A stretch of 64,000 nt of DNA, from the sequence record MH992122.1. One strand, 5' to 3'. Origin of the DNA: Escherichia phage OLB35. The notes under the pieces are model-generated. The model was not told where the DNA came from. It did not search any database and was given only the letters and a program-made list of their open reading frames with translations. Made by a program: the position numbers and the translations under genes. Shown piece by piece: positions 2,765-10,404 of this stretch (its first letter is position 1; every line of letters starts with the position of its first letter).

Positions 2765-3450
2765 TACCAGCCTTCCATAGGGAATTCCAGATAAACTTGG
2801 GCATTGACACGAATTTCATTGGTGATCTTTTTAACTCGGTCTGTATTACGAGATACACGTCCGAACCAACGCCATCCATTACTAATTGCACGAGAACCAG
2901 TGTGCCATGTTTGCCAATCGAACTGAAGAAGAGTACGGTCTGGAGCTTCCCATTTCTCTAGTTCGCCTTTTTCAATTTTTTCGAGGACTTCTTTGTGCCA
3001 TTGGCGATAGATAAGTTCGCCATCAGGAATCTGACTGAACTCTGCAGTTCCTGTTGCAAAATGAGTAGGACACACGTCAGCGTTAACAAGACCAAGAATA
3101 TGTTCAGACAAATAGCGAGGATTGTCATAGTCAGGTTGTCCTGCAGTAATAAAATGTTGACCAACCGGAATATCCCGGCGCGGTACATCATCATGGTGAT
3201 AACCTGGAATAGCAGGATACCAACCAGGCATCAGCATATGAACCCGAGAATCAAATACAACATGTTGATTAGTCCAATCAATTGGGAGATTGACAATAAA
3301 GCTACGAGTAATAGGACCGCCGTTATCCTAAGCAAATTTTAAACTACAGTTAAAGAACATAGGCTCGTTCTTGATTTGATCATTAGAAATACCGCCGGCA
3401 AAACCACCTACTGCACGAGCTTGACTATTAAACACTTTAGAACTATTCAT
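2764..3450 (-). pseudogene. hypothetical protein interrupted by in-frame amber codon
   Basis: ATG at 3450 with SD GAGGA; in-frame TAG at 3328-3330 after 40 codons; same frame continues to 2764 (the 157-aa ORF of the track). Confidence 0.4.
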
Positions 3451-5910: not shown

Positions 5911-5942
5911 TTTCTACATTCCTTAATAAAGTTTTCGATTGT

Positions 5943-6332
5943 TTCATTTTCACGTTTAGCTAGGAGTTCATTATAACTAATCATTTGAGAAGCGTAAACA
6001 GCATAAATTCAGTTAAGGCTTTTGCATCTTATTTCCTTAACGAATTCCATAGCTTCTTCATATTCATACTTTTTAACAGCTTCGATTGTTTCATTTTCAC
6101 GTTTAGCTAGGAGTTCATTATAACTAATCATTTGAGAAGCGTAAACAACGCCGTCAATAAGAAATCCAACTAATCCAAAGGCAAATCCCATGCCAATACT
6201 CATAATAAAAATTAGAATGTTCTCACCAAGAGAAGGCCAGCATAAATTCAGTTAAGGCTTTTGCATCTTATTTCCTTAACGAATTCCATAGCTTCTTCAT
6301 ATTCATACTTTTTAACAGCTTCATCATACTGA
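5943..6332. repeat. nested direct repeats A (about 66 bp) and B (about 83 bp) in order A-B-A-(93 bp)-B
   Basis: A at 5943-6009 and 6090-6156; B at 6009-6091 and 6250-6332, near identical by eye. Confidence 0.8.
6009..6203 (-). CDS. small membrane protein (chimeric: unique N-term + repeat A + repeat B)
   Basis: 64 aa; C-terminal 22 aa identical to the C-terminus of the ORF at 6248-6640. Confidence 0.4.
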   Translation of the reverse strand: MSIGMGFAFGLVGFLIDGVVYASQMISYNELLAKRENETIEAVKKYEYEEAMEFVKEIRCKSLN

Positions 6333-6640
6333 GCTTGGGCTTTTGCGCACTGAACTTTCCATTCTCTTAATCGGGCTCTGTGATGACGTCCTTGGTACCA
6401 ATATCCCATCCAGTTAATAGGCATTAATAAAAACGGTACAATAAGTGGTGCGACGAACATTAATGAAAATGCTGCATCAGACGATATAACTTCACTAGAA
6501 TCTAAAACGGCTCCTATAATCATAAAGATTAAAAATGCTAAAGCTAAAATAGGGCCAAATAGTACTTCATTTGGGATTAATTTACGCTTGTATTCATACG
6601 CCCAGGGCTTACTTGGCATGTATAGGGTTGGCTTTGACAT
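6248..6640 (-). CDS. hypothetical membrane protein
   Basis: about 130 aa from ATG at 6640 (the track start at 6670 is TTG); two hydrophobic segments; C-terminus encoded by repeat B. Confidence 0.45.
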   Translation of the reverse strand: MSKPTLYMPSKPWAYEYKRKLIPNEVLFGPILALAFLIFMIIGAVLDSSEVISSDAAFSLMFVAPLIVPFLLMPINWMGYWYQGRHHRARLREWKVQCAKAQAQYDEAVKKYEYEEAMEFVKEIRCKSLN

Positions 6641-7211
6641 ATTCTCTACATTCCATAATAAATTGCTCAAGGATTAAATTGTTAGTGAAATTAGGACTAA
6701 CAACCATAGTTTCATAAAGCGCATCAATAGCACTTAAAGCATCAACTCTCTTAAGCAAAGGCTTGCCTTCATACATAGTTTCAGAATCGACGATTAACGT
6801 AAAGTAGTATTTTTTATTATCGACTAGAACTTCTGTATCGATATAAAACATATTAGTCCTCAGAAGCTTATCTCTAAAACCATAATAATCTTCAGAGCGT
6901 TCGCTGATATATTCCCATTCAGTGTTTAAACAACAAACAGACCACGTAGGAGCAACGAAATCAGTGAATCTAATATCATGGTCTGCAACTAGTTTAGCAA
7001 TAGCTCCGATATCATGAATCATAATACCTGGGGCTAATAAAGATTTTCTGCTATGGCTAGCCGTTTTCTCGGTGGTCTCATAAGAAGACGACCAGTACCA
7101 TTTACGTCCGGTTGCAACATATCGTAATGAATCAACTAAAGACGTAGGTGGATTTACCTTATCTCGGAACTCTTCGAACATTGAGTCAATATCATTATTT
7201 TGGTTTCGCAT
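6609..7211 (-). CDS. hypothetical protein
   Basis: about 200 aa from ATG at 7211 (MRNQNN) with SD AAGGAG; C-terminal region FIMECR is part of the junction motif. Confidence 0.5.
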   Translation of the reverse strand: MRNQNNDIDSMFEEFRDKVNPPTSLVDSLRYVATGRKWYWSSSYETTEKTASHSRKSLLAPGIMIHDIGAIAKLVADHDIRFTDFVAPTWSVCCLNTEWEYISERSEDYYGFRDKLLRTNMFYIDTEVLVDNKKYYFTLIVDSETMYEGKPLLKRVDALSAIDALYETMVVSPNFTNNLILEQFIMECREYVKANPIHAK

Positions 7212-7228
7212 GTTAACTCCTTTATTAT

Positions 7229-7252
7229 CCAAAAGGAGGACCGGAGTCCTCC
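7229..7252 (-). terminator. hairpin followed by T-run on minus strand
   Basis: stem GGAGGAC/GTCCTCC, loop CGGA, then TTTTGG on the minus strand; directly precedes the RBS of the next gene. Confidence 0.4.
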
Positions 7253-7260
7253 GTATTATT

Positions 7261-7854
7261 TTATTTCAAAGAGTTAATATATTCTTGTACATCAGCAGAA
7301 GTGGTTTCGACACCGGCTGGAGTGCCATTGAACGTTTCAACACGAGTCAGAGTGTCTTCGATATCAACCTTAGTCAGTGCAGCAATTTCAATCACATCAT
7401 CAGCCGTAGAGATACCAAGGGCATTGGCTGCTCGAGTTTCACGAATGTATTCGAGTTTGATTGCCAGATTCTGACGAGCATCATCAAGTTCAACCACCTT
7501 ACGAGCAATTTCAATTCGCATAGCGGCATAACCGTCAGCTTTTGTATTAAGTTGTTCGGCAGTTCGACGATACAGAAGACCAAGCTTAGCATGCATGGTA
7601 ACATCTTGTCCTTCAGCCAGGAGCTTACGAATTTCACGTTCCTTAGAAGCGGCTTGCTTGTTCTTTTCATTAACAAGTTCGCGAATACGTTTTTCTTCAT
7701 TAATAGATTTAACAGAAGCCGTTTTTAGTTCTTTGATTTGGGTAATCAACTTATCTGCAGCTGCGTTATACTGTTCTTCGACAGTCAGATTTTTAGCCAT
7801 AGCAGTACCCAGTTTAGTGCGGATGAATTCAACAAGTTTCTTCAGTGTGTTCAT
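7261..7854 (-). CDS. coiled-coil protein, PspA/IM30-like (tentative)
   Basis: about 197 aa, heptad-rich, charged; loose resemblance to E. coli PspA by eye; ATG at 7854 with SD AAAGG. Confidence 0.5.
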
Positions 7855-7924
7855 ATTATTACCTTTCAATTGGTGGTTTATTATCCAATGAGAGCATTAT
7901 ACTCTGCTCTCAAGAGTTTGTAAA

Positions 7925-8152
7925 TTATTTTTTAATCAAATTGACATAAAACTTGGCGTCTTCCGGGTGCATGCCTTCGCAGTATTCTTCAACCATGAAC
8001 TTCTTAACAGCTTCATAAGGACCACTCAGATTAAGCTCAGTTGTCCAAAACTTGGAATCTTGGGCTGAATCGATACGAACTTCAGGGTGTCGGTTGCGAA
8101 TAACTTCTTCGGTGTATTCATAATCAACGACATCAATACTAACTTTAGCCAT
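7925..8152 (-). CDS. hypothetical protein
   Basis: 75 aa; preceded by module M copy 1 (promoter plus conserved leader with GAGGAG). Confidence 0.45.
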   Translation of the reverse strand: MAKVSIDVVDYEYTEEVIRNRHPEVRIDSAQDSKFWTTELNLSGPYEAVKKFMVEEYCEGMHPEDAKFYVNLIKK

Positions 8153-8161
8153 TTTGTTTCT

Positions 8162-8635
8162 CCTCTGTAGTTGATAAGTCTTAACTATAGTATCACCATC
8201 ATTGGTGTTTGTACATCATTATTTTTAATTTTTCCAACTTAACAACCTTCAGCCAAGATACAACAGAGTTTTTATCTGAGGATTCAAATTCAGGCATTGG
8301 ACTTTCACCGCGAATAACTTCTTCGGTGTATTCATAATCAACGACATCAATACTAACTTTAGCCATTTTGTTTCTCCTCTGTAGTTGATAAGTCCTATAG
8401 TATCACCATCATTGGTGTTTGTACATCATTTATTTTTAATTTTTCCAACTTAACAACTTGTAGTGTCCTTCATTCATACGTGGTTTATCCCAAGAAATAC
8501 TAATATATGATTCGCCATCAATAGCTTTTTCTTCACCACCACCACTGATAGTCCTCTGTAGTTGATAAGTCCTATAGTATCACCATCATTGGTGTTTGTC
8601 AACTATTATTTTTAATTTTTCCAACTTAAAACTTG
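8162..8635. repeat. three tandem copies of a roughly 90-bp promoter/leader module (M) separated by partial gene duplicates
   Basis: module CCTCTGTAGTTGATAAGTC...TATAGTATCACCATCATTGGTGTTTG...TTTTTAATTTTTCCAACTTA at 8162-8255, 8376-8456, 8549-8635; 8300-8375 duplicates the 5' end of the 7925-8152 gene; 8457-8530 duplicates the 3' end of the 8626-8916 gene. Confidence 0.8.
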
Positions 8636-8916
8636 TAGTGTCCTTCATTCATACGTGGTTTATCCCAAGAAATACTAATATATGATTCGCCATCAATAGA
8701 AGTCGCCGGGTTTTTCTCTACCGTAAGACCTTCACTTTCCAGCCATTCAATAGTATTTGCGCATAAATCTGAAGAACACCTCATCGGAAACTGGCAAGAT
8801 TTTTCACCTTTAGATGCAGCGTTATACATCTTTTCTAAAATACGCTTTTGCACGTTTTTAAAAATGGTTTCAGCAGATTCTTCAGATTTTTTATTCAGTT
8901 CAGTATAAAGACTCAT
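8626..8916 (-). CDS. hypothetical protein
   Basis: about 96 aa from ATG at 8916 (MSLYTELNKK) with SD GAGGAG. Confidence 0.45.
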   Translation of the reverse strand: MSLYTELNKKSEESAETIFKNVQKRILEKMYNAASKGEKSCQFPMRCSSDLCANTIEWLESEGLTVEKNPATSIDGESYISISWDKPRMNEGHYKF

Positions 8917-9042
8917 AATATTCTCCTCATTAATAGGGCTCATAATATCTCAATCATTAGCTCATTTACGTATTTATAGTAACAGCATTCTCTGAGAGAT
9001 TCAAACTAAAAAGCCCCAACCTTTTGGCTAGGGTACAGAATG

Positions 9043-10249: not shown

Positions 10250-10326
<77 letters not shown>

Positions 10327-10329
10327 AAT

Positions 10330-10404
10330 TGGTGACCCTGGCTGGTTTCGATCCAGCTACCTATCAGTTATGAGCTGACAGCTCTCCCATTGAGCTACAG
10401 GGCC
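10330..10404 (-). tRNA. tRNA with anticodon CAT (Met-type; likely the AUA-reading tRNA-Ile as in T4)
   Basis: hand-folded cloverleaf: acceptor GGCCCTG/CAGGGTC, D stem GCTC/GAGC, anticodon loop CTCATAA, T stem GCTGG/CCAGC; 75 nt, CCA encoded. Confidence 0.75.

Follow-up and report, generated by a model that had tools for sequence, protein, structure and literature searches.

Does the gene at positions 7261..7854 of the DNA analysed here encode a phage relative of the bacterial membrane-stress protein PspA, or a coiled coil that resembles PspA in composition? The window, by which we mean the whole 64,000-nucleotide stretch from Escherichia phage OLB35 (MH992122.1), had received an initial annotation in which a roughly 197-residue product of this gene, placed in an early region, was judged by eye to be loosely similar to PspA.

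The e.6 gene and its locus

The predicted product corresponds to a real open reading frame on the minus strand, with 197 codons and a stop (7261..7854; ATG at 7854–7852, stop codon at 7263–7261). Direct reading of the sequence places a ribosome-binding site, GAAAGG (7862..7867, minus strand), 7 nt 5' of the ATG. The TTG at 7869 given by the ORF finder was rejected as the start codon because the homologs begin with MNTLKK or M(A/S)ILKK. The phrog_1203 profile matches the protein over residues 1–197 (E=4.6e-87), and this full-length match, together with the orthologous position in T-even genomes, identifies the gene as the ortholog of T4 e.6, to whose product the window protein is 88% identical. 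The annotation of the Mosigvirus PhAPEC2 likens the corresponding gene to T4 e.6 (NP_049742.1), and e.5 and a frd.3-like gene flank it. The window gene differs from T4 e.6 at 22, 11, and 84 first, second, and third codon positions, respectively, a pattern indicating that the e.6 frame is under purifying selection. Since selection acts on this minus-strand frame, the overlapping plus-strand ORF at 7210..7728 (172 residues) was dismissed as spurious.

The gene is preceded by a sigma-70-type promoter of the T4 early type (TTTACA-17 nt-TATAAT; 7924..7896, minus strand), which matches 11 of 12 consensus positions. T4 e.6 is preceded at this place by TTTACA-17-TATTAT, despite a different upstream gene, and the T4 e.6 RNA belongs to the early class and its protein to the middle class (PMC9697503 supplement). 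The placement in an early region thus agrees with both the near-consensus promoter and the RNA class. The terminator-like hairpin that the initial annotation had noticed at 7229–7252 was also recovered: starting 8 nt past the stop codon, a 7-bp stem containing 5 G-C pairs and closed by a 4-nt loop (GGAGGAC-TCCG-GTCCTCC, 7252..7235) is followed by TTTT, the whole resembling an intrinsic terminator (7231..7252, minus strand). Its folding energy is -14.4 kcal/mol (z=-3.07), and none of 200 shuffled sequences folded as well. In the records of phages PhAPEC2 and fPS-90, a terminator is annotated at the corresponding hairpin; T4 also has a G+C-rich hairpin here, but one of another sequence (GGGGC-TTCG-GCCCC). 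The ribosome-binding site and ATG (7211) of e.5 come directly after the hairpin and leave no space for a promoter, so e.5 must depend on read-through from upstream.

In both phages, e.6 is bracketed by an early promoter and a G+C-rich hairpin (about 2430–2470 and 3097–3115 in the T4 locus, L088), and the two hairpin sequences are unrelated. This bracketing resembles the "promoter-early stem-loop" cassettes that have been proposed to mediate gene shuffling in the hyperplastic regions of T4-type phages. The e.6 gene lies in the hyperplastic region that extends from the lysozyme gene e to the tRNA genes. T4 has e.7 upstream of e.6 instead of the frd.3-like gene, and the surroundings of the e.6 cassette therefore differ between phages. 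In the window, the frd.3-like gene (7925..8152, minus strand; 75 residues, PF05798 E=3e-38) is accompanied by a truncated copy (8199..8366, minus strand; 55 residues, PF05798 E=7e-9). Both copies share an 88-nt repeat of 99% identity spanning the N-terminus and the ribosome-binding site (8096–8183 and 8310–8397), and a 49-nt repeat lies upstream (region 7925–8443). On the other side of e.6, perfect direct repeats of 85 nt (5999–6083 and 6238–6322) and 67 nt (5934–6000 and 6081–6147) cause the e.3-like ORF (6009..6203, minus strand) and the e.4-like ORF (6248..6670, minus strand) to end alike, with an identical last 22 residues (...AVKKYEYEEAMEFVKEIRCKSLN). The repeats at 5934–6322 look as if genes for small membrane proteins had recently undergone local partial duplication or recombination; possibly they are an assembly artefact. 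Genes for tRNA-Arg(tct) (10250–10326) and tRNA-Met(cat) (10330–10404) lie on the minus strand, where PhAPEC2 has three annotated tRNA genes at the corresponding place.

The window belongs to a T-even-type coliphage genome. Its positions 6000–9000 share 99.3% identity with Escherichia phage CCU7 and 94–97.5% with further coliphages, including PhAPEC2 (95.8%). Proteins 100% identical to the window protein occur in phages mobillu, ESh15, NHEP29, and Mizar, with Mosigvirus-type coliphages among the identical matches. Of 50,697 phage records searched by tblastn, 1101 contain the protein, with the identity falling to 31–37% in Serratia, Enterobacter, and RB43-type phages. A HMMER profile built from 26 sequences retrieved 45 proteins from 1.84 billion representatives, consisting of full-length proteins of about 200 residues and shorter fragments. 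The e.6 family is a small, compact one, and phages encode all of its members for which the genomic context was examined. Purifying selection has kept the gene in T4-like phages of enterobacteria and Aeromonas. PHROG 1203, as the family is catalogued, includes gp163 of Klebsiella phage Metamorpho and Gp_125 of the Salmonella Kuttervirus SeF3a. A Foldseek search of BFVD also found PHROG-1203-type proteins in Erwinia phage phiEa2809 (E=2.5e-7) and Klebsiella phage UPM 2146 (E=3.2e-5), two phages that we take to lie outside the Straboviridae. Among Kuttervirus genomes, 4 of 15 encode such a protein (PMC9409062). The patchy distribution of PHROG 1203 suggests horizontal transfer between lineages of large myoviruses.

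The canonical Psp system is organised as pspF-pspABCDE, whereas no relative of pspF or pspBCDE was detected near e.6, and the neighbours e.5, e.4, e.3, and the frd.3-like gene gave no Psp-related matches in Pfam or NCBIfam. The "sulfurtransferase" label carried by T4 e.3/e.4, which would echo PspE, was set aside since neither Pfam nor NCBIfam supports it. A conserved partner gene was sought across distant loci, and none was found: on two metagenomic contigs of distant T4-like phages, the genes that lie downstream of the e.6-like gene do not resemble e.5, and membrane proteins lie near e.6-type genes in only three of five loci. The e.6 protein is encoded outside any Psp operon and would act as a stand-alone PspA-like effector.

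Relationship to PspA, Vipp1, and ESCRT-III proteins

The link between e.6 and PspA is already in print. Metamorpho gp163 was called a T4 e.6 homolog and gave an HHpred probability of 99.9% to E. coli PspA (4WHE_A) in a 2021 genome announcement (PMC7862958), and a 2022 study described phrog_1203 as a PspA homolog found in some Kuttervirus phages and proposed that phage PspA could serve against abortive infection by keeping the proton-motive force from being lost (PMC9409062). The assignments in both papers rest on HHpred or HHsearch. Our literature search on e.6 and phage-encoded PspA returned these two bioinformatic mentions and two omics or fitness tables, and no experimental study was found.

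Searched as a single protein, the window protein gave nothing significant in Pfam, NCBIfam, or the PDB sequences; PF04012 (PspA_IM30) was not matched at E<=10, and the Pfam search yielded only weak coiled-coil noise. Diverse members of the family, 41 in all, were scanned one by one against Pfam. Five of the 41 members matched PF04012, with a best E-value of 8.9e-10, and the next-best E-value was 0.0015 among the 25 most-matched of the 184 Pfam families touched by these members. Two proteins, P0183 (39.0 bits, E=8.9e-10) and P0177 (35.1 bits, E=1.4e-8), exceed the PF04012 gathering score of 33.9 bits, aligning residues 6–146 with profile positions 2–143, and P0181, P0180, and P0172 gave matches below the threshold in the same register. 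Both P0183 and P0177 belong to PHROG 1203 (E=3.5e-65 and 1e-52, respectively), and they are encoded on T4-like phage contigs beside UvsX, the DnaB-type gp41 helicase, DNA ligase, and thymidylate synthase (td). They are related to the window protein by BLASTP (E=5e-13 and 1e-14) and by profile comparison (E=7e-17 and 5e-20), with alignments that cover nearly the full length, including the non-coiled C-terminal part. Membership in PF04012 may accordingly be extended to the window protein transitively, at the level of the family, the window sequence alone giving no PF04012 match.

Alignment of the 41-sequence e.6 family with a PspA/Vipp1 alignment by hhalign gave a probability of 90.6% (P=1.3e-6) over 168 columns, pairing e.6 1–176 with PspA 1–172 from residue 1 of both. 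The PspA/Vipp1 profile used here is shallow, consisting of E. coli-type PspA and one Vipp1 fragment; attempts to assemble a diverse PspA set, by searching proteins with the E. coli sequence and by scanning genome contigs, gave only Enterobacterales sequences of at least 82% identity. The real score of 45.5 may be compared with 17.7–18.3 when either alignment was reversed, and with maxima of 23.8, 28.9, and 36.9 for block shuffles of 7, 14, and 28 columns, respectively (60 each, n=180). A greedier alignment extended the match to e.6 1–197 and PspA 1–214, with a single gap of about 21 residues between α4 and α5; in this low-confidence extension, a 13-letter stretch of e.6 faces PspA "ADDAISEQLAQLK". 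In e.6, TLTRVETFN is aligned with AMARFESFE of PspA. The HMMER profile of e.6 gave non-significant matches to PDB sequences (E of about 1–2), three of the six being Vipp1; these align 5–139 with 5–141 and have the EEKR motif in common, likewise at a non-significant level.

The long amphipathic coiled coil described in the initial annotation appears in the AlphaFold2 model (mean pLDDT 77) as a long antiparallel hairpin preceded by an N-terminal helix. The N-terminal helix (residues 2–22; 7789..7851, minus strand) is modelled at low pLDDT and would be the equivalent of PspA/Vipp1 α0, with hhalign pairing it residue for residue with PspA 1–22. The first hairpin arm (residues 25–80; 7615..7782, minus strand; pLDDT 84–96), the candidate α1, contains the motif I-N-EEKR at residues 51–56, which aligns with IAEEKR of Vipp1. 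The second arm (residues 86–145; 7420..7599, minus strand; pLDDT 73–92), probably α2 and α3, aligns with PspA residues of about 88–145. The remainder (residues 146–197; 7264..7419, minus strand; pLDDT 50–88) is predicted to be a flexible linker with short helices at 166–174 and 186–196, tentatively α4 and α5. The modelled helix layout is that of PspA: α0, α1, α2/3, α4, and α5. In a Foldseek search against 350,542 PDB chains, ranks 1–8 were all Vipp1 (E=1e-3 to 2e-2, TM 0.45–0.55), followed by the archaeal ESCRT-III protein CdvB2. In BFVD, the hits ranked after the family members were to a Snf7-family protein and to a phage protein annotated as PspA/IM30. The model has the helical-hairpin core of ESCRT-III proteins (Snf7/CHMP/CdvB).

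The putative α0 (residues 2–19) has a hydrophobic moment of 0.43, compared with 0.42 in PspA and a family mean of 0.41, and a net charge of +4 in the window protein and +1 to +5 over all 41 members. It is an amphipathic, cationic helix, probably of the membrane-binding type found in PspA. The e.6 protein has no transmembrane segment, signal peptide, or lipobox.

The divergence from each of the known proteins is considerable. E. coli PspA (PDB 4WHE, PF04012) shares about 11–12% identity with e.6 and has 222 residues compared with 197, e.6 being short of about 21 residues between α4 and α5. The AEDP junction that follows α0 in PspA is replaced with KN(L/T)(T/S)VE(E/D) in e.6, and the charge of α0 is +4 in e.6 and 0 in PspA. 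Expression also differs, PspA being driven by sigma-54 and e.6 by a sigma-70 promoter of the phage early type. The best PDB structure matches to e.6 come from Vipp1/IM30 of cyanobacteria and chloroplasts (7O3W, 6ZVR, and 8QBW, among others); taken alone, the match in sequence lacks significance (E of about 1). The additional C-terminal helix of Vipp1 (H7/α6) is missing from e.6, and assembly of e.6 into rings or filaments would be putative. The "PspA/IM30 family protein" of Acinetobacter phage ME3, with 229 residues, is closer to canonical PspA and is a distant structural match to e.6 (Foldseek E=0.036). ESCRT-III proteins (Snf7/CHMP and archaeal CdvB) match e.6 more weakly than Vipp1 does, and, unlike e.6, they lack a PspA-type N-terminal helix α0.

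Could such divergent similarity arise from heptad composition in a generic coiled coil that shares no ancestry with PspA? We consider this very improbable. The matches of the family members to PF04012 pass a curated threshold in a common register, and PspA_IM30 stands far ahead of the other Pfam families among those compared. Reversal and all 180 block shuffles left the hhalign score well short of the real one, and the first eight structural matches are all to one family. Furthermore, the alignment starts at residue 1 and remains colinear through the non-coiled C-terminal part. Both the profile and the structure comparison favour a relationship with PspA/Vipp1, and what was found is neither a lack of profile matches nor a likeness of composition only. 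From the PF04012 matches above the threshold, the hhalign controls, and the Vipp1 structure matches, we therefore conclude, with a probability of about 0.9, that the similarity first noted by eye reflects homology, and that e.6 represents a phage lineage far diverged within the PspA/IM30 (Vipp1)/ESCRT-III superfamily.

Possible roles of the e.6 protein

PspA and Vipp1 bind membranes through α0, polymerise through the hairpin, and reduce the leakage of protons and ions. By analogy with these proteins, we slightly favour the view that e.6 acts as a PspA-family protein that stabilises the inner membrane and the proton-motive force, in line with the suggestion of the initial annotation that such a protein could stabilise or remodel the host membrane. 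Transcription of the gene starts at its own sigma-70-type promoter and yields a near-monocistronic early unit, whose mRNA the terminator hairpin attenuates. With its cationic amphipathic α0, the soluble protein would attach to the inner membrane from the cytoplasmic side, and its hairpin may polymerise into a membrane-bound assembly, as in the family. Such an assembly would limit the leakage of protons and ions, and the infected cell would stay energised while DNA injection, superinfection, phage membrane proteins, accumulating holin, and depolarising abortive-infection effectors place its membrane under stress. T-even phages shut off host transcription early. A T-even phage may need its own copy of PspA because this shutoff would leave the sigma-54/PspF-dependent induction of psp unavailable.

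A bolder and more tentative suggestion is that T-even phages and some Ackermannviridae phages carry an ESCRT-III-like membrane-repair protein, made immediately after infection, which replaces the silenced Psp response of the host and serves as a counter-defence that upholds the proton-motive force against depolarising abortive-infection effectors or superinfection damage. The anti-abortive-infection part of this idea has, as described above, been published. In T4, where e.6 is listed as a gene of unknown function, knock-down of e.6 by dCas13d had no fitness effect ("Not Fit", 7 guides; PMC11879866 supplement). T4 e.6 is thus dispensable under laboratory conditions, which fits a conditional, accessory role, and a counter-defence function would explain why the gene is dispensable on defenceless laboratory strains.

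Homology to PspA is also compatible with other functions. E. coli PspA is in addition an anti-activator that binds PspF, and e.6 might be a regulator or decoy that binds host PspF, PspB/C, or PspA to block or hijack the Psp response; the hairpin region, which would make the protein contacts, is indeed the best-conserved and best-modelled part of e.6. We nevertheless think this rather unlikely. A phage that shuts off host transcription early would gain little from blocking a host sigma-54 activator, the cationic α0 of the membrane-binding type is kept across the whole phage family, and an identity of about 11% to host PspA makes co-polymerisation or mimicry toward PspF less likely. Holins are triggered by membrane depolarisation, which raises the further possibility that e.6 is a factor in lysis timing, whereby a stable proton-motive force would prevent premature triggering of holin T and support lysis inhibition instead of counteracting defences. 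The location of e.6 between e (lysozyme) and the tRNA genes, together with the small membrane proteins e.2, e.3, and e.4, and weak matches to Rz-like spanin profiles (phrog_1267, E=0.042; TIGR03495, E=0.014) would be in line with such a role. However, e.6 is expressed early and not late, its knock-down produced no fitness phenotype in liquid culture, and its neighbour genes are not conserved in distant phages, and we regard a function in lysis timing as unlikely. The spanin- or LysB-like reading of e.6 (E=0.014–0.042) was rejected because the matches are non-significant coiled-coil noise; the protein, moreover, lacks a signal peptide, lipobox, or transmembrane segment.

Some GenBank and UniProt records of e.6 homologs carry the labels "host specificity protein" and "tail completion protein", and these labels are all that speaks for e.6 being a virion or host-range protein. 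Neither is backed by profile or structure matches, and the early promoter, the early RNA class, and the position in an early hyperplastic region and not in a structural module point elsewhere, as does the fact that PHROG 1203 is recorded as "unknown function"; we find this reading hardly credible. Together with "sulfurtransferase" for T4 e.3/e.4, these record labels look wrong or unsupported, having no Pfam, NCBIfam, or PHROG backing. We suggest that PHROG 1203 and T4 e.6 are better labelled "PspA/IM30-like protein" than "hypothetical", "host specificity protein", or "tail completion protein".

If the assignment of e.6 to the PspA family and its role at the membrane are true, the best-studied lytic phage has a member of the ancient, membrane-remodelling PspA/Vipp1/ESCRT-III superfamily among its early genes. 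The phage would then offer a simple and genetically tractable system for studying how such proteins protect energised membranes, and e.6 would allow one to ask whether phages defeat suicide defences that kill by depolarisation through repair of the membrane.
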